A stretch of 64,000 nucleotides of DNA. Source: Octopus vulgaris (Eukaryota). A program made the position numbers and the translations under genes. This document shows positions 10,676-60,107 of the stretch, in pieces. The notes beneath the pieces were generated by a model that saw only the letters and a list, made by a program, of their open reading frames with translations, was not told the DNA's origin and made no database searches. The DNA lies in the NCBI GenBank assembly GCA_951406725.2, contig OX597818.1, positions 22,320,001 to 22,384,000 on the forward strand, in the 5' to 3' direction. Numbering within the stretch: the stretch's first letter is position 1; each line of letters opens with the position of its first letter.

Positions 10676-10729
<54 letters not shown>

Positions 10730-11682: not shown

Positions 11683-11721
<39 letters not shown>

Positions 11722-12074: not shown

Positions 12075-12114
<40 letters not shown>

Positions 12115-28884: not shown

Positions 28885-29262
28885 GTGCAACTTCCTCTGA
28901 TTTTTCTCCTTCAATCCCGAAGCGCTGTCAAATGCTGTTATGGAATTTGTTGCTGTAATATCTGGACTGACTTAGCTGTAGCTGTTGTTGTTGTTGTTGC
29001 TGCAGCGTTGAAGAAAACTTAGTTTGGAGTCAACATATACAGACAGAGATTCTTAAACATTGTAGTTGTTGGGAATAATACAAATACGGACGAATCTTTA
29101 TTCATTTAAACTAAAATAGTGATTAAAAAAAAATTATCTTAAACAAAGCCATAGAAAGTTGCACAGCAATAGTTCCAATTTTTTTGTACATGTGAGGAAG
29201 AACATGTTTTGTACATTTGCATTTTTTAATATAGACTTTGCAGTAACAACAATATAAGCACC

Positions 29263-35959: not shown

Positions 35960-38900
35960 TATGCTCAGTTGAAAAACAAACGTGAAGAGAAACATTTTCT
36001 TTTTAATTATTTTATTTATATAAATATAACATTTTATATTTATTTACAAGAAGAAAGATAACTTAGTCGTGAAGAAAAACGACTTTAAATTCCTTAGCTA
36101 ATTTCTTTTTCTATCTTATACGTTAACCAACAAATCAAAATAGATTTGTGATTAACGTAGACATGGCATAAAAATTTACCGATGTCTCCAAAAGAGTGAG
36201 TGTCGTGGAGTTGAATGACTACCGAACGAACACTAAAGTCTTCCCAAATCCAGGGTTTTTATAACTGCTCAACCTGATCAAAAAAAATCGAAACTTCAGG
36301 ACAAACATTCTTTTCGAAACTTCTAGAATCTTTATACGAGCAGTTACAGTAACCAATGGGAAAAGAACGAAAATGACAATTCCTCGGCAAAGACATTACG
36401 TCATATTGCCAATTCGCGCCACATTTCAAAATGGCTATTGCTACATCAGCCTCTCGCCAGAAAAATTGTTAAAATTTTGCGAAAGGAAATTTGTAATACA
36501 TATTTTTTTTATACAACATTTGAATTAATGGTTACAACATATCTATATATACAAATGCATTCATAATTTACATGTTAAACATATGAAATTAGCCTTTCCA
36601 ATACGGCTTACAATTATAATGTTCATATATATAATTCATTTCATTTCACTGGAAAAATTTTTTAAAAATTTTTTATATAATCCAGGAATATAAAAACTTT
36701 TTTAAAAATCTTCAAACAAACTGAGAAAGTTTTTTTGGAAAATGTACCATTCTACCACTTCTAGTCTTTTTCACATCTGTAGGTAATTTCAAAATTGACT
36801 GTTTTTCCATTAACATTGGATTTGTTTCTTTGAATATCATTTTGTTTCAAGTTATGTTGATATGTATTGCTCACATCTTCATTTTCATGACATGAATGTT
36901 GGTCGAAAATAAGCTTTTTTTACTCTGTCGACACTGACAATTTCTTTTTTTCCATTCATTTCCAAAGTCATAGTTTTGTCCCTAACTGACAAGACTTTAA
37001 AAGGTCCGGTGTATTTATATTTCAGTGAATTATGAGCAACATCGTTACGTACAAATACATGTGTCCAAGATTTTATATCAGAAGGAACGAAGCTTTTAAC
37101 ATTTTGCAATTTTCTTGTAAAAGAAGGAATATCTGTAAGAAATCTCTTAAGACGAGTTACATAATCATAACATCTCCATTGAAAGAATTAGTTTCTTCGA
37201 ACATTTGAGCAGGTAGAGTTAATGTTGTTCCGTACAAAAGTTCAACAGGAGAATATTGTATATTTTCTTTAACAGCACTTCTAATTCCTAACAACACTAC
37301 TGGTAAGGCTTCTAGCCAACTGTTAGAATCAGAAGAAGCACATGAACATTTAAAAAATTTTTTCGAAAGATTGACGAATTTTGGCATTGTGATAAATCCA
37401 TCGAAGTGTATTTTTGGTGAACTCACCATATCTTTTCTGGGTCATCTTATAGATAAAGATGGAATTCGCCCATTACCAGAAAAAGTTGAAGCAATAAAAA
37501 ACTTTCCTGTACCGAATAATGTAAGGAAGCTCAGAGAATTTTTAGGGATAGTTAATTTTTACAGAAAGTTTATTCCTAAAGTCACGGAAACCTTATATCC
37601 CTTAACTGAGCTATTGAAAACTAGAAAGAAAAAAATGAAGCCATAACTTTAAAAGTAACAGAATTACAAGCTTTAAAAAAAATTAAAGAGAAACTGTGTA
37701 AAGCAACACTTCTAAACCATCAGGTTCCTGAAGCAAAATTATCATTAATAGTTGATGCTTCCGATGTTGGAATCGGTGGCGTTCTACAGCAATTTCATTG
37801 TAATTCCTGGCAACCCTTAGCATTTTTTTCAAAAAAATTCAAGGCACCAGAAACTAAATACAGTGTGTTCGGCAGAGAATTGTTGGCAGCTTATTTGTCA
37901 ATTAAGCATTTCAGACATCTTGAAGGTAGGTCATTTACTTTATTCACTGACCATAAACCATTAACATATGCGTTAAAAAGTTCTTCGGAGAAATATTCTC
38001 CTAGAGAAATTAGACACCTTGATTTTATTTCACAGTTTACTGTGGATATACGTTATATCAAGGGTGTTGTTAAAAATTCAGCAGCAGATGCACTTTCTAG
38101 AATGAATGTAGATGCATTAAATTCACTAAACACTATAAATTTGGAAGTAATGTCTAAGGATCAAGTTGCAGATAAAGAATTTTCTTTATATAAAAATTTC
38201 AATTCAACTTCTTTAAAATTTAAAATGTTGCCGATCCATTCGTGTAATTCACATATTTGGTGTGATATTTCTACAGGTTTTTCGAGACCATTTGTGCCTG
38301 AAAAGCATAGAAAAAAATGCTTTTTTCTAGCTTACATAATTTATCTCATCCAGGTATAGAAGCTTCATTAAAGTTGATATCAAGTCGTTTTGTTTGGCCT
38401 GGTATGAATAAAGATATTCGTTCTTGGGTTAAGTCATGTATGCAATGTCAAAAATCAAAAGTACAGCGTCATATCAAAGCACCATTAGGTACATTTGCAA
38501 ATCCAGATGCGAGATTCCAACATATCCACATCGATATAGTTGGACCTTTAACTCCATGTGAGTATAATTTATATTTGTTGACGTATCGATCGCTTTTCGA
38601 GATGGCCCGAGGCTTATCCGATAAAAGACGTATCTGCAGTAACTATAGCAAAAACCTTATTTACCAATTGGATGTCTAGATTTGGCATTCCAAATACAGT
38701 GACAACAGATCGTGGTAGACAATTTGAGTCTAGCCTGTTCGCAGAATTCAATAAATTGTTGGGGATTAATAGAATTCGTACAACTTCATATCACCCACAA
38801 TCTATCATTCCGTTAGATTGTGGGTGATATGAAGTTGTACGAAACTTCTAGAATCTTTATACGAGCAGTTACAGTAACCAATGGGAAAAGAACGAAAATG

Positions 38901-38979
38901 ACAATTCCTCGGCAAAGACATTACGTCATATTGCCAATTCGCGCCACATTTCAAAATGGCTAAAATGGCTATTGCTACA
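35960..38979 (-). mobile_element. Ty3/Gypsy LTR retrotransposon, rearranged: truncated 5' LTR 38979-38840, inverted pol segment 37347-38804, integrase C-terminus 37346-36720, PPT and 3' LTR starting at 36445
   Basis: Both LTR copies start TGTAGCAATAGCC on the minus strand (36315-36445 is nearly identical to 38840-38979). A purine-rich ctggcgagaggctga precedes the 3' LTR. Motifs: RT (INPSKCIFG, FLGH, FLGIVNFYRKF), RNase H (DAS, RELLAAY, FTDHKPL), integrase (HPG...[26 protein letters not shown]) and minus-strand WLEALPVVLLGIRS, YTGPFKV, VSVDRVK, TRSGR. Left end of the 3' LTR is approximate. Confidence 0.88.
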
Positions 38980-39619
38980 ATACCAATCATCAATGCATTT
39001 ACGCTTTTGGTCCAACTGTACTGGATATATTTAAGGAGAAAATGAAAATACACATTTTAAAATCAGATAACACCATATAAGATGAATCAATACAAAAATT
39101 CAAGCAAATACTCTTATTTACAATGGTATTAATATATTTCGTTTTTACAATAACTTTGAATTTATACATCATTTGGTGCTATACATCATTTTATGATTTG
39201 TATATAACATGATTTTTGACATCGGGCTCTATTATGAGCGCTCGAAGTACTGTTTGTTGAAAAAACATGCAAACTTCTGCAATCTATTACGAGGCTGATA
39301 TTAGTAAACACTTGTTGCTGGAACAACTCAATGTTAAATCATTAGCCACAAATGTTTACGAAAACCTGGCCCAAATGCTTGCAACAGAATTAACGTTAAA
39401 AAAAAAAAAAAAGCCAGAACTAAGTGGTGGCATTAAAGCGAGCAACATATTAAGCGTACCAACCAAAAATTCAGAACAAAGAGCAGAGCAAATACCGCAG
39501 GATATTTTGTCTTGTGCTCTAAAGAGTGCAAATTTACCTTCGGAGAAACACTTTAGGCTGGTGACTAGGCTTCATGATGAAAACTATATAAAGCCTGTTA
39601 GAATTATTGTTCACGGTAA

Positions 39620-39895
39620 CTATGTATCAGCTCTGACCATAGCTCTGCAGGCATTGCCATTTATACAAATCGCTCTGTCTTGTTTACAAATACGAGCATG
39701 AATAAATATTTACATTTGACAGATTTGTCCTCATCTTGTTTATTGTTACCAACGTTTCAGGTGTCCTGAGGGAATTTCGAACCTGGTTCTCATTCCTAAG
39801 GTATTTTTCCGATATTATTATTCTGGTCACTGCCTAAAATTGAACTCGAAATCTTGGGGTTAGCTCGCTCTCTTAACCACTACGCCATATATCCG
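39620..39895 (-). mobile_element. tRNA-derived SINE-like repeat (third family)
   Basis: Minus strand begins atatggcgtagtggttaagag (A-box-like) and continues to gagttcaa (B-box-like). Confidence 0.5.
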
Positions 39896-42480
39896 TGGAC
39901 AATTATAAAGTGAATTTTAGGGCTTATAAATCTATTATTTTCCTATCCTTCCTTAATACCGGTTCCCATATGCTATTCATATCTGCACCTAATTACCCAC
40001 AACCATTTCAACGAAAGTATGAACCAACTGAAATAGATATCATTTGGGGCCTGTTTCTAATATTTTGCTCTGCAAAATAGATTTTTTTTTATACACCATT
40101 GAAGCGACTGACTTGTTTCACCAGCTAATAGAACAGCAATTTAATCAACCTATTGGCTAAAGATGTGGTGGATGTAGTAAATGACCACCATTTAGGTTAA
40201 TTGGTTGGATTCTATAGAGAAAGTTGAACGCTTGTGATTTAGAAACAATCATTAGAAAGCGTTATTAATGTAATTTTTTGATGAATTCTCATGTGATATG
40301 TTCTGGAAACTAAATAATGGAAGGGAAAAAAATGGAAAAAAAAAAGAAAAAATTCTGAGGCAATATGGCATTCAGTCAACTTTCCGATAGTTTTAAATGT
40401 AGGAGTGAAAAATTAAGAATCTCGTCCGTAAAAACACTAAGACTAGACCATAATATTAAGAGTAGTCATTTCATTAAGCTCAAAGAATGCCCATGGGCCT
40501 GTGCATATTCCAGTTTTGATCTAGGACGTCATAACGTTCGTCAAAGCTTAAGTGCGATACGTTACAATACATTAATGCATGGACCTTCTGTAAAAAGAGT
40601 ATCAAATTTGCTTTCATAAAAAGGGCAATTTTAATCCATTTTGTAAAACCTAGAATGTCAGGTCACTTTCGAGTGCTACTGGTAACATGTAACCCAGTAC
40701 AACCTGTTGCATGGTCGGGTCGTCGGCGACTAAACCGGCAACCCCACCAAGCTTGCTTGGTGAGGAGGGTGTTTATTGGACACCCTGCGGGATGAAAAAT
40801 AAAACCCGTCAAAGGGCGGAGGACCTCTTGAGAGTCAACGGCCAGCCAATAAATGTTAGCACGGGTACGCAGAAATTCCGGGGTGATGTCCGGCGTGCTG
40901 AAAGACCACTGGGAGTGAGGCGCCCCTCAGCTTTTGTTAAAGCATGCCTCTAGGATAAGGTCACTGATATAAAACCAGATATGCAGGAAATGGCATTGGA
41001 CATTTTGGGGATCTTTGGTTTGTGTTAGAGATCACGGCGCTCCCACATCCCTGAGCCTGCGACTCATTGGCACCAGACATCTTGCTCCGGCTTGTCTCTG
41101 GATAATGTCAAAGTGGAGAGGGTCTATGAGGTGTTGTGCAAGCCTTATTGGATCTAAAACTCTGCACAGGCATTGCCGACCTCTGCTCGATATGTGCATT
41201 TTTTTTATTGCGACCTACACCTCAGCACCAATGCAAAACGAAATCCTCGAATTGTTGAGAAGACACACTGTCAGGTTCGTGGTCGATGTTTATTTGAAAT
41301 TATATAAAAATAATGTTTAAAGATTTGGCTGTTATCTCTAGCATATAGAAATACCTTTTAGGCTTAACTATTTGCTTCTTGAAAATCATTAAAAAATATT
41401 TGAGTCGATACATTCAACTAAAAATTCGAGGTGATGCCCCAGCATGGCCTCAGTTATTACAGCAAATAAAATATAAAAAACAATACAATTTATATCAGAA
41501 GTTTTGACCAGGTTAGGCGTCAAGAAATGTGGGGGCGAAAAAAACCCCGAAAAATGTAAGCATGGGACTTTTGTCCACTTTCACACTTTAAGTAGGAGCT
41601 TTTGTCCGTACCCCTGTTCAGCACCCCCAGTTGCAATCGGCTAGCTACGTGGCTGCTAGTGACTTAGAAGTAATCAGACGTTAGCAATAATTTTCAGATG
41701 AATTTACACGTTATGAAAACTAAAACTAATGAAAAAAAAAAAAAAAGCGAATACAGAAGATGGAAATATGCCATTCAGTGAACATTCTGATCATTTTAAA
41801 TGTAGGTGTGAAACATTTGCTGTCCTCATTTTCATAGTCCCCTTCGTAAAAAATATTGGGAGTAACGGTCTCCAATGTCAAGTTCCAATATCATGATCTA
41901 ATTTTCTGGTGAATTGACTTGCGACATGTTCAGAAAACTATAAATAACGACAAAAAAAAAAAAAAAAAAAAGAGACTAGGCCACAACAGAGACTAGATCA
42001 TCCAACACTAGTTCAAGTAAATTTGAACCAACTGAAAACAAGCATCATTTGGTGTCAAAATATTTTTATGCACCAATGATTCTACTATTTACTGGCTCGT
42101 TTCACCAGCTAGTAACAAGAATCTGGCTAGTTTAACAGATTTAGAAGCAATCGTTAGAAATATACGTTTATAAAGAATTCACATGCGATATGTTCTGAAA
42201 ACTATAAATACAGGAAAAGGAAAAACGATATAAAAATAAATGTGGAACTTCTTGTCAATATACCATTCGGTCAATGACCTTCAGATAATTGTAAACGTAT
42301 GAATAAATTCGGAGTCCTCATTTATAGAATCTTGTCCGCAAAAATCTCGAGGCCAGTCCTCCCATCGAGATCAAACGATACACTTGGACTGTATATCCCA
42401 GTTTTGAAAATGGTACATTAGCACAATGATGTCCACGTAGGTCATATGCGGCATCTACATCCGAACTAGATCGTGATATC

Positions 42481-44481
42481 TCTCGAGGGACAACGCATGT
42501 AAGACCGAAACTCCCGGGGCTAGAAATAGCCTTTCTCGACCTAGCCAAAGCCTTCGATACTGTCTCGCATTCCCTCGTTTTTGCGGGCATGAGGAGGCTC
42601 GGTTACCACGACCACCTGATTCGATTAGTGTACCACTACCTTCACGATAGGGACCGGTAGTAGCGCGCCCATTGAGATAAAGCGCGGTGTTCGACAGGGA
42701 GACGCCCTATCACCCTTTTAACATCGCGACCGATCCACTGCTGGACAGCCTGCCCGCAAATATGGGTCTGCAGGTCGGAGGTGCGGTCGTGGCGGGCCTC
42801 GCATACGCGGATGACTTAGTGCTAGTCTCCGGCTCTAGCCGGGGTCTACAGTGCCTCTTAGATCGGTGCTCGGAGTTCTACCAAGCGGTGGGGCTCTCCA
42901 TTAACGTTTCCAAGTGCGCGTGGTTCTCCATTCGAAATTGGAGAAAGTCTTTAGTCAATGCGTCATCGCCGCCGACACTATGGTTGTCCGGTACCACGAG
43001 TCGAGCCGGATGAAAGCGTGCCGTACTTAGGGATGAGGGTTCGTCCCCGGTCGGCACAGAATAGGGGAACATCAGATGAGAACATAACGCGATGCATAAA
43101 CGAACTACGCCGGGCACCGCTAAAGCCCCGTCAGAAGTTTTTGATGCTACAACAGTATTACCTGCCTAGTCTGTTTTACAGGCTGACACAGGCGATACCC
43201 ACTAAGGTGGCGTTAGAGAAATTGGATATGATTGTACGAGGTGGGGCGCGAAGAATGCTCCATCTCCCGGACTCGACCTCGAAAAGCTTCCTGTACAGCG
43301 CAAGAAGGGACGGAGGGTTGAACCTCTGTCAGTTGGCGCGCGCTATACCGAAGAACGTGATTCGTAGGAACCTGCGTTTACTGGGCTCCGAATATGATGC
43401 TGTTCGCATGATAGCTCAGGCTGCCGATCTCGCCCATCAAAACGAGGAGCTATCCGCCCTGTTCGATCTACCATCTGTCCGAAATGATGGCAATCCATAC
43501 GCCCCTGACCTCCGCCTCATCCATGCCAAGAGATGGGCCTCGCAACCGGTCCAGGGTGTGTGTGCTGCCGCCTTCAAATCGGACCCGATTGGAAACAGTT
43601 GGCTGACACGACTGGGTTGAATCTCGGAGGGATGCTACTTGGGGATACTCAAGATGAGGACCAACACGTTTCCCACACGTGAATGCCTCACCCGTGGAGG
43701 TCGTGGCGATAGCACCTGCAAAAGGTGCGGAAGTGCGTCTGAAACGATCTCCCACATCAGTGGCCAGTGCTCACGCCTCAAAACAAAGAGACTGACCAGG
43801 TACACTCGAATATGCCGACTGTTGGCTAGGGAAGCCGAGCGGTATGGGTGGATGACCGGCTGGGAGCCGGTTTATCGAGTATCGGGGTCCAGATACATCC
43901 CCGATTTAGTGTTTCACAGTTCGAGCGAGGTTGTCATCGTTGATGTTACCGTCCGATATGAGCAGGACACGGCGTTGAGTGACGCTGCGCGCGAGAAAGA
44001 GAGAAAATACCGGCCGCTGATTCCGCTCCTCCGAGGGGAGCTGGGTGTACCGGTACGAGTGTTCGGCTGCCCGATAGGGGCCTGCGGCGCATGGTGCTCA
44101 GAGGCCGAGGAAGCATTGGCAGCACTGCACAATAAAGACAAACGTTTCATGAGGCTGCTAAGCAGAACTGCAATGATCTGCACGTTTAACATGTTAAGGA
44201 ATTGATAGGCTTAAGGAATTGATGCCACTCGAGTTCCTGTCGGATCCGACACGGAATACCCCTTCGATGAGGTCCTCACCTGGATTCTTTTTTGAGGACT
44301 GGTGTGTCGGAGACCCCTCAATTTTAAAAAAATTTTTAAAGTTTTATTTAATTTTTTTTCTACGAGGTGGTAGCAAGGCCTGTGTACCTTGCTTCGGCAG
44401 GAACTTTGATTTATATACCGATTTTGAAGAAAATTTTGTAGTGTCCCATCTATGTCGCCCCCTAGTGAGTAATAAAAAAAA
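42481..44481 (+). mobile_element. 5'-truncated R2-like non-LTR retrotransposon (family A): RT, CCHC knuckle, restriction-like endonuclease, 3'UTR and short poly(A)
   Basis: FLDLAKAFDTVSH, GVRQGD, LAYADDLVL, YLG, LKPRQK, DGGL, CKRCGSASETISHISGQC, YIPDLV...IVDVTV...EKERKY, PIGACGAW; ends aataaaaaaaa at about 44471-44481. Confidence 0.88.
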
Positions 44482-45017
44482 TCATTTGCAACACCACTAT
44501 CTCCTTCACCAATTCGTTGTAGAAAAGAGCGAAATTAAAAGTACTAAACTGCTGAGAATTTGTTTAAGAAACTTCTCGTCAAATATCTCTTATAGACCAA
44601 CAATACGGAAACCTAAAGGTAAGTTCACCGTGAAGAAAATTCACCGAGGAAATATATCCATAGTAAGAGTTAAAAACTATTTTATCGGAAAAGAGAAAAA
44701 ACGGTGAATTTTCTTTGAGATGAATTTATAGCGGTGAACTTACTGGATATAGCTCTTTTTTTTTTTTTACTTTGAATTTATTCGATATATTTTTAAATAT
44801 TCAAATGCTTGTAAGAATTGTAAACTGACTTTATAATTATTTTTTTAATTTTATGTGCTAACATAGTAATGGAATGGTTTGGATTCAGTAGATTACATTG
44901 TAATTTTATCTTGCAGTAACATTCTATCCAGGTGTAAAAAAATTTCTCTCGCAAATATTAATTCAAAAATGTATTAATTTCAATGAATACTGTCTTTCAA
45001 ATTACGGTACTACGTGC

Positions 45018-45268
45018 GACAGACGAGAATACCAAGCGACGCCACACCACTGATGCCACTCAGGGAGCGTTCAGATGGACCCGACGGGGGAGAGGAAAAC
45101 CCTGGACTCGACATAAGAAAGAAAGAGAAGAGGAAAAAGGAAAGAAGAAAAGAGACAACAATCGTCTGACAGACGAGAATACCAAGCGACGCCACACCAC
45201 GGATGCCGCCCAGGGGGCGTTCAGATGGACCTGACGGGGGAGAGGAAAACCCTGGACTCGACATAAGA
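45018..45268 (+). repeat. Two ~101-bp direct repeats (45018-45118 and 45168-45268) separated by a purine-rich spacer
   Basis: gacagacgagaataccaagcgacgccacacc...ggaaaaccctggactcgacataaga occurs twice with few mismatches. Confidence 0.9.
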
Positions 45269-46079
45269 CCCGGTTATGACAACCGCCGAAATGAAGTCTG
45301 GCGCCGTGAATTCGATCACTGGCCATGGCAGAGCGGGACGGGCAAACATCGGATGGACAGCGTGCGCGTCGCTATCGACGGAGTGCGTGTGAGACCGCCC
45401 ACATAAAATAACAGGGAAAGGTTGCTGAATCGCAAGTGCGAGAAAAGTATTTACGTACCAGACGACACAAAAAATCTCGAGGCCAATCCTCCCATCGAGA
45501 TCAAACGATACACTTGGACTGTATATCCCAGTTTTGAAAATGGAACATTAGCGCAATGTCGTCCACATACACCATATGCGACATCTCCACCCAAGCTAGG
45601 ATGTCATAACGCTCGTCAAAGGCAAAGTGTGATAAATTACTTCGCCAGAAAACACAATGCCACCACTAGTTCAACGAAAGTGAACCAACTGATGCATATC
45701 TGCGATATCATTTAAAATATTGAGACTAGCTCGGGAAATTGGGGTTGCATCTCCTATTCAGCACTATCGATACACTTGGGTTCTGTATATCCTAGTTTTG
45801 AAAGTGGAACATTAACGCAATGATGTCCACGTAGGCCATATGCGACATCTACATCCGAACTAGGTCGTGATATCACTGGTCATAGATAGAGTGTGAGAAA
45901 AGTATTCACATACCAGACGACACAATGCATAGACTGTCTGAATCCGTGTAAAATTTTTCTCCAGTATGAAAGTCGATTTTATTAATTTTTTTCTAAAATC
46001 TAAAACATTTTCAAAGCAAGCACCGCACAGGACTCGGTTGTTCAGTGTCAAGCTCATCTTTTAGTACAGAGAAAGAAAG

Positions 46080-46666
46080 CCATAGTGGAATGACAACGAA
46101 AATACAGATTTAACGTAAGAAGGAACATTGAGGTGGCGAGTTTAGCAACTGGCGAAGTGAATAACAAAATGAAAGGCGTGAATTTTGCAGCAGCGGCAGG
46201 GAGTAAAACTCGAAAGATAAATACCAATAATTAAAAAAATTACAGAGTTGTTAACAAAGGAGGGGACTGAAGTGAAAGTGGTCCCTCAAAATATCCAAAC
46301 TGACGTGTTAGAAAGAACAGTGATATTCAAAACATACGTGGAGAAAAAGAAAATCGATTACGTCAACGAAAAAGAAATTGAAAAATGTTTAAAGCCAATA
46401 TGGCAACACACAAAATACGTAATTCAAGGGAAAAAGTATGCAACAATAGAGGTTCGTATGGAGTCGGCCGAGAAGGTGAAATAGTACTCGCTCGAGCCAT
46501 TGCGAACAGAGGTGGTGGTACTCCTTCAGATATACATGGGGAGGAGAACCTCGAGGATCAGAATAGCGAACGTTCCGCCGGAAATGGAATCAGAATGGTT
46601 TGTGGCAGCAGTCTTACTAAATTTAGAAGAAATACTGCTGCTATCAGCCGAAGAGCAGACAACCTG
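46080..46666 (+). mobile_element. Tx1/L1-clade LINE ORF1 fragment (copy a, 5' part), interrupted by an R2-28S insert
   Basis: NFAAAAG, RTVIFKTY...EKEIEKCLKPIW...YATIEVR and YMGRRTSRIRIANVPPE; homologous to the ORF1 at 50573-51300. Confidence 0.75.
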
Positions 46667-48348
46667 GACATGGTCCTGGTTGCGAAATCGCACGATGGTC
46701 TTCAGGCTCTTATCGACAGATGCTTGGAGTTCTATCGTGGGGTGGGCTGGGACTTAATGTTGGAAAGTGTGCGTGGTTCTCCATCCGCGGCAGGAGCAAG
46801 TCCTGCCTAGTCAATCATAATACTCCGCCGAGCATTGATGGTATCGCTATAAAACAAGTAGAACCAGGGGAAAGAGCATCCTATCTAGGTTTGAACATTC
46901 CCACTTGCACTTCAAACTCATGTCGGGAGTTTAGTTTAGAACCAGTGGAGCATATGTCTCTGGATATAAATAAAATATGCAGAGCTCTGCTGAAACCCCG
47001 ACAGAAGTTTCTCTTGCTGCAGCAATATTACCTGCTTAGGCTCTTTCATAGTCTAGTACAGGTGCTGCCGTCAAGGGAATTCTTGAGCGGCTTGACACGG
47101 CCATCCGTGAGGGGGCTAGGAGGATGTAACATCTCCCTGAAACTACGTCCTCTTCCTTCCTCTATTGCAGCCTGCGTGACGGTGGGTTGAGTCTTCACCA
47201 GATGGTGAGACATACTAAAGTGCGCCATTCGCCGTAACCTTCGCCTGCTGACCTCTTATTATGTCTGTTAGGAAGGTTGCGGATTCTGCATGATTAACCG
47301 AACAGAACCAGCAACTTATAGTATCCTACGATTTGCCGTTGCTAGCTGCGGGCGCTACCGAGTACAACCCTGATATCCGGCTGGTTCACTTCCACAGATG
47401 GGCGGCCCAGCCGGTGTATGGAGCGAGCGCGGCGGCGTATCGTGGCGATGCAATCGGTAATAGTTGGATAAGTAGGCCGGGTAGGATTACGGAGGGGTGC
47501 TACTTGGGTTTACTCAAGATGCGCTCTAACGTGTATCCTACCCGAGAAACTGACACGTGGTCTCTGTGGCGATTCCACGTGTCCGAGATGTAGATTAGGA
47601 GCAGAGACCATCTTTCACGTCAGCGGAGTATGTGGCGCTCTTAAAGGGCCACGACTCGCCAGGCATAAGATATGTAGCCTGATGGCGAAGGAAGCTGTGG
47701 ACTATGGCTGGAGTGTCAGTGTGGAGCCTTCCTACATTGTAGGTGGCTCCAGGCTGATCCCTGATCTGGTCTTTAGCCGTCCGGAAAAGTAGTGGTAGTC
47801 GATATGACCGTCAGATTGGAACAAGGGGATGCCTTGAAAGAGGCATCCCTAGAGAAAATGCGCAAGTACCGACCGCTCGTACAATTGCATTTGCAGGAGT
47901 TCGATCGGCCGGTGGAGGTGCATGGGCTCCCAATCGGTGCCTGTGGTGCTTGGTGCAGACCTGCGAGTATGGCACTGGACGCCCTGGGCATAAAAGACAG
48001 GTCATTTCGACGACTACTTAGCCGGACGGCTATGATCCTAATGTACAATATGCTGAGAGACTAGCTCTCAGCATCGGGGGATTCATGCATGACCCCAGTA
48101 CGATGACATTAGCTTAACCCAACTGAAAACGATAATAAAAAGAAAACCGAACTGACTTGTAAATACCGATACCCGCCTTAGAGAATATTTTAGCTATTTT
48201 TTATCTGTTTTAATATTGTTCGGGACAGTGGGATCGTCTTGGCTTGGCATTTATGCCTGTATCCTGTGCGCGTCACTAACGGCGAAGCATAAAGTGGGAC
48301 CACCCACTATAAATAAAGGGAAGAGAGACTAAAAAGTCTATAATACCA
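46667..48348 (+). mobile_element. 5'-truncated R2 retrotransposon (family B, copy 1)
   Basis: DMVLVA...LQALIDRC, SYLG, LKPRQK, RDGGL, ETIFHVSGVC, IPDLV...VVDMTV...EKMRKY, PIGACGAW; the 3' end abuts TAGCCAAATGCC, the R2 site in 28S rRNA. Confidence 0.92.
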
Positions 48349-48481
48349 TAGCCAAATGCCTCGTCATCTAATTAGTGATGCGCATGAACGGATCAACGAG
48401 ATTCCTACTTTCCCTATCTACTGTCTAGCGAACGGGCTTGGACGGATCGGCGGGGAAAGAAAACCCTGTTGAGCTTGACTC
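48349..48481 (+). rRNA. Non-functional 28S rRNA fragment (133 bp) immediately downstream of the R2 insertion site
   Basis: tagccaaatgcctcgtcatctaattagtga...aacgagattcc...tccctatcta...ggggaaagaa-accctgttgagcttgactc matches the conserved eukaryotic 28S sequence, with a 16-nt internal deletion and substitutions. Confidence 0.95.
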
Positions 48482-49420
48482 AGAAGTCATAGACATTATG
48501 AACACAAAACTGGGAGTGATAGTTGAGAGAAAACCTCGCTGTTTTAAATGTGGGCTTTGAAGGTCACGTAAGGACTGAATGCAAGAAAGAAACAGAAAAA
48601 GAAGGCGAGGAGGAAGACAACCAAGTGGCAACAAAAGAAATAGAGAAACAGAATGATAATCAACAGTTATCGCCAAGCTAATTTGGCAGTCCATAAATAT
48701 AAGACTGCAGATGCCTGACCAGCAAGGGGAAGCGGCTGACCTCCCTTTTCAATGGTTATAATGGACACATGTTCGTGTGTCATATAGCTAGCTAGAGGCG
48801 ATGGCCTCTTGGAGCTAATCAACGGCAGCTTTAGTCTTATAGTTCACTTGGTCAGTTACAGTGATCATAAATTTGTCATTTGTAAGCTGGAACTAGATAA
48901 GTTAAATAGTAGAGGCTCCGGCTACTGCAAACTCAATAAGTCCCTTTTGGCGATTGAGGAGTATACGAAACGGATTAAGTTATTGATATAGAGGGCATTG
49001 ACAAGAAGCATAATTTACAATAAAAGGTAGTACGCCCTAAAAAAAGCCATCAAATTTGAGTATTAGATATAGCATAGGTTTAGTGAACGTAAGAGGGAAG
49101 TAGAACTAGCTAAGACCTTAGAGGAAGCCGTGATGACTGGCAGTACATCTCAGGTGAAGGCAAAGAGACTGGAATTAAACCAGCACCTCGAAGCCAAACA
49201 CATGGGGTGTATTGTCAGGGCTAGACTTCGTGCAATGGGTTGCGAGGGGATCAGAGCCGCTGGATGGGCCCCGAGTGGTGGAAGCCCAACGTGGAAATGA
49301 TTCCACAATTCGATCTTTGGAGAACCTACAAGGTGAGTTGGTAAACGAGCCTGAGGAGATATGTAAGACTTTTCAGGAGCACTTCGCCCAGCATTTCGGG
49401 GGTGGGGAGCGATGGACCGG
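48482..49420 (+). mobile_element. Tx1/L1-clade LINE copy a, continuation: ORF1 zinc knuckle and ORF2 endonuclease C-terminus/linker
   Basis: RKPRCFKCG...GHVRTEC (CCHC, one frameshift), SDHKFV...GSGYCKLNKSLL, and RARLRA. Confidence 0.75.
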
Positions 49421-50399
49421 ATAGTGCTTCTCGGAAAGCACACGATGAACGAAAGTCTGAACCAACTGAAATATGTGTTATCAGTTGGGGGTTTCTTTCT
49501 GCTGGATTTTGCAAAATATTACTTTTTATACACTATTGTATCCACTGACTAATAACACAGCAATCTAACCAATCTGCTGGTTAACGATGTCATGGATGCT
49601 ATATATGATCACCACCACTAGAGGGACATTTATCTTAACTTTTCCAATGGGTTGGACTACGCAGAAACACTAGTTGAGTATAAGAAATTTAGAAGCAATC
49701 ATTAGTGACCGTTGGCAATAGAATTTTCTGATCAATTTACATGTAATATATTTTTAATAATAAAAGCAAATATGGAACAAATTTAGAATTCCAAGACAAA
49801 AACATTCAGTCGACGAATTTCAGAATGAAAAATTAAATGTCCTCATTTTCATATTCTCGTCTGCAAAAATATTTCGGCTAGATCACAATATTGAAAAATT
49901 TGAAATAAATTTAGGATTTCTAGGCATTATACCATTCAGTCGACTTTCAGATCGTTTGTACCGTACGAGTGAAAAATTTAGTGTCTTCATTTACAGAATC
50001 TTGTCCGTAAATTCTCGAGACAAGACCTCCCATTGAAATCAAACGATACATTTGAGCTCTGTATATCCCAGTTTTGAAAGTGGAATATTAGCGCAATGAT
50101 GTCCATGTACTCAATACGTGAAATCTGTTAGGGTGTCATATCGGTCATCAAAGTGAGATAAATGAGTTAGGCCTGTAACAGACATGATTTGGGGCTGGTT
50201 TCAGCAGTATTTTGCTGGGAAAAATATTACATTTTTTTTATCGACTGGCTCGTTTAAGAGATTTCGAAGTAATCATTAGAGACCATTAGCAATATAGGTT
50301 TATCAAGAATCTACAAGTGTTAAGTTCTGAAAACTATAAATACAAAAGAAAATCGATATCAAAATAATTTTAGAACTTCGTGGCAAGATACCGTTAGAT

Positions 50400-52190
50400 C
50401 AGTCATCAATGGCCAGGTCGAATTTTCTCGTCTGTGTTATTCTTGATAGCTGAACCAACTGTTTTTGAGTGTGTTTTCTGGATTGTTAAATTGTTTACCC
50501 TTGTTATTTGGATTTTACCGTGGATTGTTATTTGTTGCCTTTTTTGAAGGAAGGGTAGGCCTAATGATGGCCAGCCCGACGGCGGACCTAACTAAGGAAA
50601 GCAAAAGCCCAGCTAGCCGAATGGCGAGCCCAGAAAAGGAGCCAGAAAGAATGGGTATACCCATTTTCTCAGACACCGACGAGGAGGAGGAGAGTGCGAC
50701 TAAAAAAGAAAAAATACGTGTTCGCTGGAATATTGACGTGCCAAGCCTGGCAAGAAAGCAATTGAATTTTGCCGAAGCGGCGGGCACGAAGGAGAAAAAA
50801 ATCGAACTCTCAAAATTAGACGACCTGAAGAAAAACAAAAAAAGAAGGATACGAAATCAAAATATTGCAACCACAAGAAGTTAAAGACATAGAGAAGAAG
50901 CCTATAAACTACAAAACCTACAGAAACAAAGAAAAGAAAATAGAATTTTCGTCAGAAAAAGAAATTGAAGTCTGTTTGAAACCCATCTGGGATAAAATAA
51001 AGTACATAACAAGAGGTAAAAGATATGGAAACGTGGAAGTAAGGTTCGAATCAGAGGAGGAAGCAAGAATACAATCATTGAATCCAGTAAGAACAGAGAC
51101 TGTAACACTCCTTCCCGTCTATAGGGGCAGGAGAATTTCGAGGGTTACAGTGATGAACATTCCCCGGAGATAGAGCCAGAAAGGATAGTGGCAGCAATCA
51201 CCATAGGACGAGGAAAAATTAGAGATGCCACTGTAGAGGATGCCAAAAAGTGGCAGGACCAGAAAGTCAAAATAATGCTACAGGCAGAGCCGGCCGTACT
51301 CGAGGAGTACCACCGCAGCTTTTTATTGTACGTTGGTAGAGGCCGGAAATGACGATGCCATAGGAAGGACCTTGGGCCTCGATAATAATTAGTTAGACAG
51401 CCTGTTCCAAAGGACATTCGGGCCGAAGACGCTGGATAATTTTCAGAAGTCTTTGACCTGGCAATGTTTCAGAGGAGCCTTACTCGTTCGGGATAAGCTC
51501 ACAAGGCATGATCACGGTGGACCACATCGAACTGTCCAATATGCGAGCGGGATGTGGAAACTGTCCCGCACGCTATTGCTCAGTGTCCGGAAATTTCGGA
51601 CATGTGGGTTTATGCAGAACACCTGTTGTCAGACGGAAGAAGAGTACAGCTATTGGCTGAGACAATTCTAAAAATTGACTCGCCTAGCTTTTTGACAAGC
51701 GAAGGTAAGCATTGCTTTCTCATCATAGTAGCAGTAGCGAAAGAGTGTATATGGAGGACTAGAATGAAAGGTATAAAGACAGACACCATGATCTCTGGCT
51801 CCGCCTCGGTGAACGTTTTTAAGTTCCACCTAAAAAGAAAGGTGGAGCTAGAGAAAAGGTGTCTGTCAGTATGCGAGTTCGAAAAAAGATGGAAGCGTGT
51901 CGCACGATTGCTGAGAGTGAAAGTGACCACATGAACACGCTGTAAGTCAGCTGCCAAGTTTCAGTGGGAAAAACAGGGCTCGTGGGGTCAGCAATCCTGG
52001 TTTTCCCACTTCATGCGTCGTTTAATGTTTGTAGTGTAAAAGTGTGTATCATTCGATTTTCTCGATTTTTGCAAATTTTTACCGTATTTTTCACGTTCAT
52101 TTTTATGTAATTACCATTGTTTTAACATGACCCCAAATCATGTGTTGTCCCCTTCTATGTTGGCCCCTAGTGGGCAATAAAGAAATTCAA
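50400..52190 (+). mobile_element. Internally deleted Tx1/L1-clade LINE (copy b): 5'UTR and ORF1 5' half fused to ORF2 C-terminal zf-RVT region and 3'UTR
   Basis: ORF1 NFAEAAG...EKEIEVCLKPIW...YRGRRISRVTVMNIP; from about 51305 ORF2 W...RGALLVRDKL...CPIC..ETVPHAIAQCP...W; 3' end cccctagtgggcaataaagaa. Confidence 0.8.
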
Positions 52191-53279
52191 TGGAAGAATA
52201 AATTGGTTGTCCTCATTTGCAGGGTCTGGTACGTAAAGGTCACGTGAGTAGACTGTAAACTCGAAGTCAGACCCCCCCCCCGCCACGTCGAAATCAAACG
52301 ATACACTTGGGTTCAGTAGGTTCCAGTTTTGAAAGTGGAACATTAGTGTAATGGTATCCATGTACACCATACGTGAAATCTCTGGTTAGAGTGTCAAAGA
52401 AATTACCAGTCAACGCCTGAATGCATGGACAATTTTCAAAAGAGTAGCAAATTTTCCTTCAATAAAAAGGCAATTTCGAACATTTTTGGAAAATCTAGAA
52501 CGTTTTCAAGCAAGCACTGCACAGGACACGATCAATCAGTGTCGAGCTCATCTTTTAGTATTGAGAAAGACAGTAGTACTCTCGGTGATATCATGAAACT
52601 AGCAAAGCTACTCAATCAGCTCACAAGGAATAAGCAGCTAATCATCCACGACCATTTCAAAGAAAATCTGAAGCAACTGAAGCCGGTCATTTATTTGTGG
52701 GATGATATACGGTTTGTTTTTGCTGAGGAAAATATTCCTTTTAAAGCTACTCTCTACTGAATTGTTTCACCAGCTAGTAGCACAGCAATTTAACCAATCT
52801 ACTGACTACCGATGTGACGGATGCAATACATGACCGTTAGTGGAGGACATTCATTTTAACTTTGCTTCTAAATCTAGTGTTCAAAAGTTTCTGTATAAAA
52901 TCCAACCAATTGGCAGAGCCCGTTACCAAAATCATTTTCTGATCAATTTACATGCGATATATTTTCAATAAAAGCAAATAAATAAATAAAAGGCATCGGA
53001 GGGGTGATGCATACACGGTGCGCAGATAAATTTCTTTAATTGTATGGCTGACAATGCGTTACTTACACATGCTTTTAATTGTATTGAATTAATTTCACCG
53101 GAGTATAAATATCTATAATGGTGATACTAAAAAAATAAATAAAATAATCAGCTCTTAAACGAATCCCTCGAATTCAGTGTACACAGAGTCGCATATGTAT
53201 GCATGCATGCATGTTCTTGCTCCCTTCATGATGAAATGTCTTTCAGGCTGCAAAGAACAACTGGTTCCTTCAGGTCTCG

Positions 53280-53710
53280 AGTCGTGTCTGGTTCCAACAT
53301 GGCATCACAAGGCGAACAAAAATTGCTGTGTACCGTGCATGTGTACTGACATCGCTCATTTACTCATGTGAGACATGGACCCTTTACAAACGCCATGTAA
53401 AGATCCTTGAACGCTTCCGTCAGAGATGTCCGAGACATTCTGAATGTTGGCCGGACCTTAAAAACCACAGATACACAGGTCCTGAGGAAAGCCGATATCC
53501 TGAGTATTGAGGCTATGGTGCACAGACACCGGTTACGATGGACTGGACACCTTGTTAGAATGAATGATAGCAGGATCCCTAAACAGATGCTATATGGGTA
53601 ACTTGTTAGGGAAAAGCGACCCCGGCAGAAGCCAAGAGAGCGATTTAAGGACTGTGTAAAGTCCTCATTAAAGGCCTGTGAAATGCCGGAGGCTGACTGG
53701 AAGCTACATA
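53280..53710 (+). mobile_element. RTE-clade (BovB-like) LINE 3' fragment
   Basis: YRACVLTSLIYSCETWTLY, RLRWTGHLVRMNDSRIPKQMLYG and R-KD-VK-SLK. Confidence 0.85.
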
Positions 53711-53868
53711 GGTTTGTCAAGAACAGGGAGCACAAGTTTAAAGTATAAGGTAGTCTTGGACACACAATGTACCTAAAGGTCAGTAATGGTGTCTACTCAC
53801 ATAGGTACACTATGAGCTATACATACGCCGACGAAAATATGACCATTTTGCTTATCGGGAAATTTGTA

Positions 53869-54938
53869 CTGCAAGGTAGAAAGTGGTCCACAGATTAATG
53901 ACGTGACCGGTGTCGGGTGCTCTATATTGCGCCCGACTGTGATCTATACCAGAAATAGAGCGGGCATATTTAGGCTAGATTACACAACACAATCTCTGAT
54001 AGTGAAAGGTTTTCAGCTCCCGCTTAGTGGGGACCATGTAGTGTATGGGTGATCCTGATTGGGAGGTGTGAGCCTCCCCGCTAGGGTGGGTAGGCAGCCG
54101 CTGTTCTGCCCACTAGTAGTCCCGAGGTGGCTAATTAAATGCTGGCCAGGTTTAGCTTTCCTTCATTTAATGTGCAGGATGTGAGGGTTCCCATCGGGAA
54201 CACTAGGAATTTGGTCGGATCCATTCTTAGAATTACTGGGTGTTATCCTGGTTGTCTGGGAGGGACTTGATTAGGTTTCTGATGACTGAGTGTTTGTTGG
54301 GTTGGCCTGGGACACTTCGGGTGGTTCCTCGATAGGGATCGCTAGGTTGCTCTTGGACCCGATTGACAATGACTGGCAGTTATGACCCAGCTAGTGGTTA
54401 GTACTCGCGATAGACCACTTCTGGCAACGGGTGGATGCACTGTCAGACGGAGCCTTTCGCGGCTTGCAATTGAGTGTTGGTTAGTTGGCCGGTGGGTACT
54501 CTAGTCGGTTGGGGCGGTGGTTGCTAGCCTAACTAGGTGGGGGTAGTTTCACGCCATTTTTTAAAGTTTAAATTAATCGGTTCGGCCATGTATTCATGGA
54601 AATTGTCGCATAGATATAAGTATGAGAAACTAAGAGTTACTAAACATACAGTAGCCAGGCGCCGTTAAACTGGTGGCCTGTGGGTTCGGCACAGGGCCAG
54701 CAGGTCAGGCTGGACGTAATACCCAAATACGTTCGGCCGATTCGCGACCTTCCCCTGTAGTGGACAACGGGCTATCTCCACTGCAAGGTAGAGTTAGTGC
54801 CCCACAGATTAATGACGTGACCGGTATCGAGTGCTCTATATTGCGCCCGACAGTGATCTATACCAGAAATAGAGCGGACATATTTAGGCTAGATTACACA
54901 ACACATTCTCTGGTAGTGAAAGGTTTTCAGCTCCCGCT
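53869..54938 (+). repeat. ~155-bp direct repeat (53869-54024 and 54781-54938) at the 5' end of the long R2 copy
   Basis: ctgcaaggtaga...cagattaatgacgtgaccgg...gtgaaaggttttcagctcccgct occurs twice with few mismatches. Confidence 0.88.
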
Positions 54939-57900
54939 GGACCTAATACATGACCCCATCCATGACGTCCATTCTCTTACTTTAGAAATGGACCGAGAGG
55001 AGGTAGTGAGGGTATCAAGCCTCACTCCAGCAGGGAGCAAATTTTTGCTGCCTATTCCCGGCACGTCGTGCTCAATAGCCTGTCCGCTATGTCCTCTGCG
55101 CTTCTCTTCTCCCCAACGATAGGGAGAACATAGAATGTAGGCATGGTATTAAACCTGTCTACAGATGTAGCAAATGTAGGGAAAGCAGACACCTCTATTC
55201 GATGATGTGTGACGCCGGCTTGTGTAATGGTGCATCTGATGCGCCTGCCCCTAGTCCTACTCGGTCCTTCTTCCAATGTGACCACTGCAGCCGTTCTTTT
55301 TTGACGGCTGCAGGCCGATCACAGCACGAACGCCATAAACACCTTGTGGCTGCGAATGCGCGCAGGATGGCTGCTCAGAAAGAGTGGCTGGCAAAGAAGC
55401 GTGCTGATCGGGCAGCCGCTGCCGAGGCCTTAGACGGAAGACGCAGAGGCTGTTGGTCAGACGAGGAAGTAACGGTCCTCGTCGAGAAGGGGGCCGAGTT
55501 CTTGAAGGCAGGGGTTAGGTTAATCAATGCAACCATTGCACGGTTCCTACCGGGCAAGACTGCCAAGCAGGTAGGTTCCAAGAGGGCGGCCCTGGCCAAA
55601 AAGGACTCGTGAGTCATCAAGGGTCAGGGCTGCTCGTGGCTGATTCCCAGCCACAAGTTGAAGGAGGACCCCAGTCTGGTTTAGACTGGAGAGATCGCTT
55701 CCTCGACGATGCATGTCTCGGGCATACCCATTGGTCAGCGGTCTTCTCCGAGGCCCTATCGGAACTCGTGGAAGACAGGACAACGGCCGCCTGGGGCTCC
55801 TTTGTCAGAAGAGTAGAGGACTGGGCAGAGCACTTTAAGATGCGTAGGGAAGATGCTGCCAGAGGAAATAGTAATAATATAGCTAAATATAAGCCTAACT
55901 TTCGGCGGCGGGGTAAGCTCATAAGATACGCCCGCCACCAGGACTTGTATAAGAAGGATAGGAAGAGGCTCTTTGCGGTTGTGCTAGGCGAGGATACGGA
56001 GCAGGGATGCCCAATCCCTATGTATGCTATAGAAGAGATCTATAGGGGAAGGCCAACTGCTGCAGGCCCTGAGGTCGATCTCTCCGACTACTCTTCCTCC
56101 TCCCAGGTTGAGAACGGCCCTATTTTGCGGCCGTTCACGGTGGAGGAGGTTAAAATTAGTCGGAGACGAATGAACACCATCTCAGCGACGGGTCCTGATG
56201 GACTCACAATTAGTGAGATTAAATCCATGGAACCAGTTATCCTCGCGAATGTTTGCAACTGCATGCTGCTGGCGAGTAAAATACCCGATATCCTGAAGCA
56301 TGGTAGATCCGTCCACGTATCAAAGAGGGCGGAAGATCTATATGATCTTACAAATTGGTGACCATTGACGATATGATCCGCGGTATATCGTCTTTTTACT
56401 AAAATGGTCGCCAAACGTATGCTTCAGGTAACTCCCCTTAATCCAAGCCAGCGTGACTTTATCCGCGCTGAGGGCTGCAGTGAAAACTCGTTTCTCCTTC
56501 GGCAGCTCGTCAGCCGCGCGATGGAGAGGCCAGCACGACTGAGAATACCGCGGCTGGAGGTTGCCTTCATGGATCTCTCCAAGACCTTTGACATAGTCTC
56601 GCACTCTTTAGTGTATGTGGGACAGCGAAGACTTTGGTTCCACGAGCATATAATAAAACTCGTGGAGGGGATCTACGAAGGCAGCACTATCAGATTCTCA
56701 TCCGTGGGCAAGTTAGCGAACCCATCCAGAATCGCCGGGGTGTTTGACAGGGGGACGCGCTCTCACCGTTCCTCTTCAATATTGCAACTGTTGAGGGGAT
56801 CCGGATGGATGGAATCGCATACGCCGATGACATGGTCTTCAGACTCTTATCGACAGATGCTTGGAGTTCTATCGTGGGGTGGGCTGGGACTTAATGTCGG
56901 AAAGTGTGCGTGGTTCTCCATCCGCGGCTTGGGCAAGTCCTACCTAGTCAATCATAATACTCCGCCGAGCATTGATGGTGTCGCTATAAAACATTCCCAC
57001 TTGGACTTCGAACTCATGTCGGGAGTTTAGTTTATAATCAGTGGAGCATGTGTCTCTGGATATAAATAAAATATGCAGAGCTCTGCTGAAACCCCGACAG
57101 AAGTTTCTCTTGCTGCAGCAATATTACCTGCCTAGGCTCTTTCATAGTCTAGCACAGGTACTGCCTGCAAGGCGAATACTTGATAGGCTTGACACGGCCA
57201 TCCGTGAGGGGGCTAGGAGGATGTAACATCTCCCCGAAACTACGTCCTCTTCCTTCCTCTATTGCAGCCTGCGTGACGGTGGGCTGAGTCTTCACCAGAT
57301 GGTGAGACTTATACCAAAGTGCGCCTTTCGCCGTAACCTTCGCCTGCTGACCTTTGGATATGACTATTAGGAAGTTGGCGGATTCTGCAGGATTAGTCGA
57401 ACAGAACCAGCAACTTACAGTATCCTACGATTTGCCGTTGCTAGCTGCGGGCGCTACCGAGTACAACCCTGATATCCGGCTGGTGCATTCCCATACATGG
57501 GCGGCCCAGCCGGTGCATGGAGCGTATGTGGCGGCGTATCGTGGGGATGCAATTGGCAATAGTTGGATAAGTAGGCCGGTTATGGTTTACGGAGGGGTGC
57601 TACTTCGGTCTTCTCAAGGTGCGCTGCAATGTGTATCCCACCCGAGAAACTGACATGTGGGTCCCGTGGGGAATCCACGTGACAGATGTAGATTAGGAGC
57701 AGAGACCATTTCTCATATCAGTGGAGTGTTTGGCGCTCTTAAAGGGCCACAACTTGCCAGGCATGACAAGATATGTAGCCTGGTGGCGAAAGAATCTGTA
57801 GACTATGGCTGGAGTGTCAGTGTGGAGCCTTCCTACATTGTAGGCGGCTCCAGGCTGATCCCTTTAGCCGTCCGGAAAAAGTAGTGGTTGTTAATATGGC

Positions 57901-58446
57901 CGTCCGATTGAAGCAATCAGATGCCTTGAAAGAGGCATCTCTAGAGAAAATGCGCAAATACCGACCGCTCATACAATTACTATTATAGTAGTTTGATCGG
58001 CCGGTTGAGGTGCATGGACTCCCAATCGGTGCCTGTGGTGCCTGGTGCCGTCCAGTAAGTGTGGCACTGGACGCCCTGGGCATTCGTGACAGGTCATTTC
58101 GACGATTACTCAACCGGGCGGCAATGTTACTTATGTACAATATGCCGAGGGACTGGCTCTCAGCATGGGGGTCCTGCATACATGACCCCAGTACGATGAC
58201 ATAGGTTCGACCTAACCAAGAAAAACAAATTAAAAAGAAAACTGGCTATGACTAAATAACGATACCGTTTCAGAGGATGTTTTAGCTTTTTTTTTAACGC
58301 TTTTAAATATTGTTTGGGACAGTGGGATCGTCTTGGCTAAGAATAAAGTAATGCCTTATGTCCTGTGCGCGTCACTAAGACGAGGCATGAGTGGGACCAC
58401 CAACTATAAATAAAAGGAATCGGTGACTTAAATGTCCATTTCAAAC
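54781..58446 (+). mobile_element. Near full-length, disrupted R2 retrotransposon (family B, copy 2) with three N-terminal zinc fingers and a Myb motif (R2-A-type architecture)
   Basis: CPLC...GEH..CRH, YRCSKC...MMCDAGLC, FQCDHC...GRSQHERHKH, Myb WSDEEV...LPGKTAKQV, SATGPDG, EGCSEN, FMDLSKTFDIVSH, AYADDMV, LKPRQK, ETISHISG, RHD, EKMRKY; ends at TAGCCAAATGCC. The 5' boundary is uncertain and may extend to about 53870. Confidence 0.92.

Positions 58447-58481
<35 letters not shown>
58447..58481 (+). rRNA. 35-bp 28S rRNA fragment downstream of the R2 insertion site (non-functional)
   Basis: tagccaaatgcctcgtcatctaattagtgacgcgc matches the conserved 28S sequence 3' of the R2 cleavage site. Confidence 0.93.
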
Positions 58482-58852: not shown

Positions 58853-60107
58853 CGGAGGAAAGATTTGAACCTGTGTGATTATTTTTATGAACTGTAGCCT
58901 GTTAATTTAGAAAAATTTATTGTATTTTTCTGTTACGAAAAAATGTCAATTGAAATTAAAGCGTGAATGGCTCTAGTTGAAGAAACTCCAAAAACAACTA
59001 TGGCAAGTACAGCTGCCAGAGATTTTGCGGCAACGGTCGCGGTACATCAAGAAAACATGTCGATCCCACGGTCGGAGTACCAGACAGATTATGAAAAGTT
59101 AACGCTGAGGCCGAGGCATCTGAGGTACTACCTAGTTGGTGAACAGCAGTGGTCTCCGTTCGTCAGATGGCTGCTTCCTAGGTTCACTAGCTTTAGAGAA
59201 CTAGAACATTGGATCCATCGTAGACCAAAGTACGGCGAATGGCACTTGGAGTGTCGACAGGCACTCTAGTTTCTCTCTCACACGGGCAATGCCAGCGGCG
59301 GGGGCTCTACGTCGTTCTTCCATAGAAGATTGGTAGAGGCGAGGAATGATGACGGCCTGGGGGAGACTAGGCTTCGACGAAAATCAGTTAGCCTGTTCCG
59401 AAGAACATTCGGGCCAGGGTCTTTGGATAACCTCCAGAGATCTAACCTAGCAATGCTTCCGAGGCGCGCTACCGGTTCGCAATAAACTCGCAAAGCATGG
59501 TGGCTCCTGTTCACCCCTGTGCCCAACATGCAAACAGGACAGGGAAACCGTTCTGCACGCGATTGTGCAATGCCCCAAAATTATTGAAATGTGGGTTTAT
59601 GTAGAAAGTCTGTTGTCACGACTGGCAAGAGTACAGCTGTCTTCCGAGTCAATCATAAAAATTGTCCCTTCTTCCTTTCATAAAGAAGGTAAGGCTTGTT
59701 TTCTCACTGTAGTAGCTATTGCGAAAGAAGTCGTGTGGAAGACCCGTGCGAAAGGTATCGTGACAGGCACTTTCATCTCGAGCCTTGGATTGGTGAGGTT
59801 CTTATCCTTGCACCTATAAAGGAATGATAGAGAAGGAGTGCCTTTCGCCGGACGTATACAAGATGTAAGGTTGTCACGAGTGAAGGTCACCACCTAAGAG
59901 TGTACAGAAAGTCTTTCTAAAGGTAGCAGTAGCGAATCGGGGCTTGCGGGGCCGAAAGCAGAACCCGTCCCCACTTCATTTTGTGTCGTAATTTCATCCG
60001 ATTTTATTATGAAAAAAGATTTTTCATAGTTATGTTTTTTCATCCTGGCCCCACTTCATTGTATCGTCCCCTCTATGTCTGCTCCCCTGTGGGCAATTAA
60101 GAATTAA
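58853..60107 (+). mobile_element. Internally deleted Tx1/L1-clade LINE (copy c): 5'UTR and ORF1 start fused to ORF2 C-terminus and 3'UTR
   Basis: MALVEE...RDFAA start; LFQRTFGPGSLDN, CPTC...ETVLHAIVQCPKIIEMWVYVE; 3' end cccctgtgggcaattaagaa parallels copy b. Confidence 0.75.

Follow-up and report, generated by a model that had tools for sequence, protein, structure and literature searches.

How does the 3' end of an R2 element, still joined to a piece of 28S rRNA gene, come to lie outside the rDNA and inside the reading frame of another retroelement? The question was raised by an earlier note on 64,000 nucleotides of Octopus vulgaris DNA (GenBank assembly GCA_951406725.2, contig OX597818.1, positions 22,320,001 to 22,384,000), a stretch referred to here as the window and used for all positions below. 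The decayed 3' third of an R2 element occupies 46667-48348 and is followed by 28S sequence that begins exactly at the R2 site. Its ORF (46667-48064, plus strand) is truncated at the 5' side and lacks the N-terminus; the coding part starts just past the catalytic motif of the RT, comprises the end of that domain, a CCHC motif and a restriction-like endonuclease, and reaches a stop at 48064. Eight stops or frameshifts interrupt these 1.4 kb, the frame reference being the third R2 of the window. The frames at 47472-47789 and 47780-48058 have R2 proteins as their only significant PDB matches (best 9nl2, E 1.5e-07 and 1.6e-06, respectively), and the coding part is followed by a 3' UTR of 284 bp (48065-48348, plus strand) without poly(A). 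The features that define R2, namely RT, CCHC and C-terminal restriction-like endonuclease, are found through PDB matches in this copy and in a sister copy described below, and both show the 3' junction at the conserved 28S site. What characterises an active rDNA-resident R2 is missing: the ORF of the first copy is broken, and neither upstream 28S nor a full rDNA context is present in the window. The insert at 46667-48481 is an old, dead R2 fossil. Its existence in the assembly was confirmed, and its joins are known from the assembled sequence alone.

The 28S stub (48349-48481, plus strand, 133 bp) matches the Rfam model LSU_rRNA_eukarya at about positions 2280-2428 with 109 bits (E 1e-27) and one internal 16-nt deletion. 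The alignment starts at the R2 site and extends to 48481, so that the R2 junction at 48349 and the length of 28S proposed at the outset are both upheld; the downstream half of the target alone is present. The stub departs from the Rfam consensus at about 13 positions. Reading all 13 as decay was rejected, since by-eye comparison with the published O. vulgaris downstream 28S (Table S2 of PMC13188248, excerpt) shows nine of them to be common to the species, leaving four substitutions in 133 and the 16-nt deletion, which is bounded by a 3-nt repeat. Where Octopus departs from mussel and scallop in the same excerpted table, the stub has, again by eye, the Octopus states. Judged by this likeness to the species' rDNA, the stub is a decayed bit of the host's own rDNA, and neither contamination nor live rDNA. 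The end of the tail was also considered as the product of the octopus-specific break in the 28S, and this was rejected: the R2 site presumably lies several hundred bases before that break. The break is located in helix 88 (PMC13321053, excerpt).

The absence of rDNA upstream of the insert, another claim of the earlier note, was borne out by searches of different reach. A scan of the whole window at gathering level gave no rRNA match, a weak test that missed the stub too. A search down to E 2 found none in 39500-48300 or in 48500-58400, and, even when as many as 3 mismatches are tolerated, the upstream-28S motif is absent from the plus strand of 36-64 kb.

On either side of the insert lie the two parts of an L1/Tx1-like ORF1, both on the plus strand: the 5' half at 46090-46666 (start approximate; profile 54-202) and the 3' half at 48482-48640 (end approximate; profile 225-250 and 250-286). 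The left half has 239 relatives at E <=0.001, and a zinc-knuckle pattern was found in 13 among the best 150 of these; for the spacing set, P0132 was dropped as spurious and P0029 was added by eye. In every one of the 13 relatives examined over both halves, 74-76 residues separate the xPP motif from the Cys of the knuckle, as against 51 in the window. On the profile built from these relatives the left flank occupies 141-202 and the right flank 225-250 (E 8.4e-05) and 250-286 (E 0.0018), and the gap between them puts the loss at the insert at about 22 codons, or about 66 bp. By this alignment the two flanks lie collinearly within a single ORF1, as the earlier note had proposed, and do not belong to different elements; the suspected loss of ORF1 sequence is now sized. 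The CCHC knuckle quoted after the insert is indeed present, but one frameshift is needed to read it. Seven of ten relatives looked up carried an organism name, and these were six Octopus proteins and one from Argonauta; in the Atlas an ORF1 relative lies near the zf-CCHC and ZCCHC3-like RNA-binding clusters (0.90-0.92).

An ORF1 of the CCHC type is known from L1/Tx1 elements (PMC5203782, excerpt). The host ORF1 shares their knuckle and has both flanks from one frame, which makes the Tx1 label plausible, while in this copy ORF2 is mostly deleted. Broken pieces at 48746-49420 (plus strand) show endonuclease-end-like motifs by eye and are taken by us to be ORF2-like; they gave no Pfam or PDB match. 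The host repeat in which the element sits stops at 46086, before the 5' half of ORF1.

The manner of the interruption leaves little trace. No target-site duplication (TSD) is present, in agreement with what was first noticed: the flanks overlap by 0, and the longest word shared by the 40-bp flanks is 5 nt, against a random mean of 5.07. The first copy thus shows neither of the classical signs of TPRT at a foreign site, a TSD or poly(A). R2 itself usually makes neither.

Such a structure could have been produced in the assembly, by joining an rDNA read to a repeat; the region is rich in repeats and the joins are seen in the assembly alone. Against this, the stub is decayed and so not live rDNA, the two flanks align collinearly to a single ORF, and the same kind of junction recurs in a second, diverged copy, all of which makes misassembly very improbable. 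Of the 24 sequencing runs listed, 13 contain half or more of the words sampled from 44000-52000; these runs come from 8 studies, or 7 without the best holder, which is a possible source. These matches show that the DNA of the interval exists, and do not show the joins; no RNA run is among the listed holders, which has no bearing on expression.

The insert is not a singular event. Self-comparison revealed a stretch at 56832-58481, 10 kb away, that is 85% identical to the first copy and forms the 3' part of a near-full-length, decayed R2 (54025-58446, plus strand, 5' limit approximate). This sister encodes three zinc fingers, Myb, RT and endonuclease; its best PDB matches are 9nl3 and R2Tg 9dou (E 1e-13 to 1e-14), and its fingers and Myb together with these matches assign it to the A clade. 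Two of the fingers and the Myb appear in the alignment with R2Tg, and the third finger was recognised by eye. The element ends in a 28S stub of its own (58447-58481, plus strand), which starts at the R2 site, is 35 bp long and agrees with the first stub at 34 of 35 positions; host repeat follows. No upstream 28S precedes the sister; instead, a 157-bp duplicate of its own internal part 54780-54938 is placed before it (53868-54024, plus strand; 8 substitutions and a 2-nt gap). Its 5' end gave no Rfam ribozyme match and the cephalopod ribozyme core motif was not found there; a candidate ribozyme at about 54027-54135 had a descriptor score of 12, was beaten by 53 of 60 shuffled sequences and was rejected. 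Just upstream, at 53235-53750, lies what by eye we take to be the 3' piece of an RTE-like LINE, without a Pfam match. A 23-nt pattern in the 3' UTR common to the two tailed copies had 0 matches in metagenome contigs. The window also contains a third R2, of another family, 5'-truncated (42480-44205, plus strand; Pfam RVT_1 and zf-RVT), in which no 28S tail was seen. In matched blocks its amino-acid sequence is about 45-70% identical to those of the other copies; it has few disablements, and by eye it is followed by a 3' end like that of the neighbouring L1/Tx1-like elements.

The two tailed copies have in common a 1-nt loss at 46743/56880, a stop at 47129/57226 and a 2-nt loss at 47549/57649, and probably a fourth lesion at 47263/57365. 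These three clear and one likely disablements, spread over the first 0.85 kb or so, mean that the copies are not fully independent. Between the copies, 46697-47490 is near-neutral (247 codons, pS 0.08, pN 0.065, pN/pS 0.80, p 0.28), whereas the endonuclease region at 47490-48062 diverged under selection (184 codons, pS 0.254, pN 0.088, pN/pS 0.35, p below 1e-4). Divergence steps up near 47255, from 24 of 519 sites to 100 of 795, a change reached by 0 of 300 permutations. Since the 3' parts diverged under selection and their GC by codon position is like that of the 5' part, two source lineages are indicated.

The common lesions, the near-neutral stretch and the step in divergence would also be expected from a single escape, in which the copy at 46667 was built from its dead neighbour by duplication or template-switch repair and acquired the 3' end of another R2. 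We hold this to be improbable. Because the 3' parts were under selection and the two tails are of unequal length, a second 28S-joined template is needed anyway, and the first copy contains stretches of 25 and 41 bp that are absent from the sister. The comparison suggests instead two escapes from separate active lineages that were later partly homogenised; the simplest reading would be two insertions, each with its own tail, and conversion of the 5' part once both copies were dead. The common frameshift at 47549 lies within 47447-47597, where pN/pS is 0.53 (p 0.12). As it sits where selection already shows, the conversion tract would be patchy, or the mosaic would have formed in the rDNA before escape.

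The claim that the insert was captured ectopically stands as the best reading of the locus; whether the source was RNA or DNA, which the earlier note left as alternatives, leans towards RNA and is not decided. Our preferred explanation, to which we give about an even chance of being right, is that a break outside the rDNA received cDNA made from an R2-28S read-through RNA. R2 is co-transcribed with 28S and its 5' end is freed by a ribozyme (PMC12203849 and PMC3774820, excerpts), so its RNA could run on into the downstream 28S. For avian A-clade R2 proteins an rRNA tail on the template is required and is not copied on target (PMC11371274, excerpt), and in zebrafish read-through tails help (PMC6530143, excerpt). 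At the normal site the tail would pair with the target and stay uncopied, while at a foreign nick or break the cDNA would start at the end of the RNA and the tail would be copied. Here the cDNA would have stopped within the RT region and been joined to the target with the loss of about 66 bp. The same event in a separate second active lineage would have left the 35-bp tail. After the death of both, gene conversion between the neighbours would have given the common first 0.85 kb or so, and each copy would have decayed by about 3% since.

Several observations fit this capture of RNA. The tails, of 133 and 35 bp, are both short and both begin at the R2 site. Upstream 28S is missing from the two copies, including the near-full-length one; pieces broken at random from an rDNA unit would be expected only rarely to end this close to the element. 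The stub differs at 4 of 133 positions, the R2 bodies by a pS of 0.08 between the copies, about 4% in each, and the internal duplicates at 8 of 157, about 2.5% each; since the decay of stub and body is so close, R2 and tail probably arrived together. The 157-bp duplicate before the sister resembles a template jump of the RT, and such jumps by the R2 RT occur in vivo (PMC3414825, excerpt). Other observations count against it. The junction bears no positive mark of RNA, as it has no TSD and no poly(A); because the target bases are lost, the likeness of the target to 28S cannot be judged. The third R2 is tailless, the searches of the sister's 5' end gave no ribozyme, and the tailed copies are only two. 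Moreover, many deletions have since affected the region, and an originally longer piece of DNA could have been shortened by them.

That last point leads to the reading in which pieces of R2-bearing rDNA units, released by breakage or as extrachromosomal rDNA, were patched into breaks as DNA and later trimmed by deletion. Break repair accounts for the missing TSD and poly(A) and for the target loss; dead R2 amplified as DNA inside the rDNA (PMC4370867, excerpt) could give common disablements and mosaics, and in birds many R2 remnants adjoin pieces of 28S or non-rRNA sequence (PMC5035012, excerpt). It is the one-sidedness and shortness of both tails, together with the lack of any rRNA piece other than the stubs in 39.5-58.4 kb, that speak against such fragments, and we consider this origin possible though on the unlikely side. 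A different order of events, in which R2 inserted site-specifically into a 28S fragment already present inside ORF1, with deletion of the upstream 28S at that time or later, would explain the exact 3' junction, and upstream 28S is often lost at the 5' junctions of R2 (PMC3774820, excerpt). However, two separate 28S islands would be required within 10 kb, both without their upstream 28S, and the decay of the stub is no greater than that of the R2 body. We give this order of events only a slim chance; in its favour, a 1988 report by Xiong et al. is said, from its title, to describe R2 inserting sequence-specifically outside 28S.

Octopus R2 and stray R2 copies outside the rDNA, the latter in flies and birds, are already in print. 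R2 is listed for O. vulgaris, O. sinensis, O. rubescens, Eledone, Sepia and Sepiola (PMC13188248, excerpt). The octopod A-clade elements R2-1_OVu, R2-1_OSi, R2-1_ORu and R2-1_ECi of that source have the same 28S junction and the octopus-type downstream 28S of the window copies. They also have, like R2Tg 9dou, 9nl2 and 9nl3, the three zinc fingers with Myb, RT, CCHC and endonuclease seen here, whereas the window copies are dead, lie outside the rDNA and have no upstream 28S. Compared by eye with table extracts of about 400 characters (PMC13188248), the 3' UTR of the window copies starts unlike that of R2-1_OVu and R2-1_OSi, and the N-terminus of the sister looks nearer to R2-1_ECi. The window copies thus seem to belong to other, perhaps extinct, octopod R2 lineages, and to preserve sequences distinct from the published rDNA ones. 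In the excerpt of Table S2 of PMC13188248 the 28S flanks of R2-1_ECi themselves show, by eye, substitutions and a deletion relative to the Octopus rows, and the published Eledone copy may itself lie in decayed 28S.

Copies of R2 outside the rDNA are known in five Drosophila species (PMC2718515, excerpt). There the non-rDNA R1 and R2 are incomplete, diverged and often in repeated DNA, and some R1 carry downstream 28S, as here; the authors invoke read-through RNA for R1 with up to 14 nt of it. The R1 cases differ in having TSDs of 3-14 bp and these tails of at most 14 nt, while the octopus R2 copies have tails of 35 and 133 nt and no TSD. That 133 nt far exceeds the 14 nt reported for R1 would, by this analogy, count against the capture of a read-through RNA. 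The avian remnants are severely mutated A-clade elements with 28S on at least one side, like the window copies; that study (PMC5035012, excerpt) put no mechanism to the test, and in octopus two lineages lie side by side, nested in other retroelements. R2NS-1_SMed and R2NS-1_CSi are likewise R2 outside the rDNA (PMC5035012, excerpt), but the R2NS families have lost target specificity and include copies more than 98% identical to the consensus. A non-specific R2 would be expected to have 3' ends free of 28S, whereas two of the three R2 copies of the window keep a 28S tail, which points to an rDNA-resident source. A literature search that covered open papers, with few subscription papers and no Repbase, returned no report of tailed non-rDNA R2 copies in cephalopods.

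Tailed strays of this kind are likely to be recurring fossil debris rather than a new system, and the locus itself is likely functionless, both elements being dead. The modest value of such strays is as a record of the 3' ends of R2 RNA. We propose tentatively, and as rather less than probable, that the natural 3' termini of R2 template RNA are preserved as fossils in the R2 strays of octopus genomes. On this view extinct A-clade lineages would repeatedly have inserted 28S-tailed read-through transcripts, with tens to more than 100 bases of tail, at foreign breaks, which here lie in a trap of retroelements on the same strand. To our knowledge, the natural 3' end of R2 RNA is not defined. If the proposal is true, a genome-wide census of tails would show the native R2 RNA ends and a route by which R2 goes off target; should the tails prove short and one-sided throughout the genome, the ends of natural templates would be mapped. 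Tools for gene insertion are being developed from R2 proteins, with a short 28S tail on the template (PMC11371274, excerpt), and both the natural tail length and the behaviour of R2 at foreign breaks bear on these tools.

Between 37209 and 63909 every recognised mobile-element piece lies on the plus strand; the ORF1s, the host repeat and all three R2 copies have this orientation. Of 132 frames of at least 62 aa, 82 were scanned against Pfam; 10 of the 52 on the plus strand gave a match and 0 of the 30 on the minus strand. With this strand bias, the interval may be a trap for transposons in one orientation, for example a piRNA cluster. The retroelements are set within a degenerate tandem repeat (39982-61156) with a unit of roughly 1 kb in at least 6 partial copies, all on the plus strand. 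The repeat was also considered as protein-coding from open-frame traces at 52377-52760, which was rejected, as no weighty Pfam match was found and Atlas scores did not exceed 0.86. Two more L1/Tx1-like elements, each missing most of ORF2, lie at 50450-52185 and 58960-60100; the ORF1 profile matches at 50829 (E 2e-39), and zf-RVT was found at 51512 and 59451. A broken LTR-retrotransposon pol with RT, RNase H and integrase occupies 37209-38824, and a 123-bp sequence is present in exact duplicate at 36315-36437 and 38840-38962. At 45018-45268 there is a direct repeat of about 101 bp with 95% identity, its copies 150 bp apart. Two long single-frame C2H2 zinc-finger ORFs of 666 and 753 aa, at 7205-9205 and 29230-31491, are in keeping with the zinc-finger expansion of octopus, and an AT-rich simple-repeat tract of 2.3 kb with 17% GC extends over 10093-12430.
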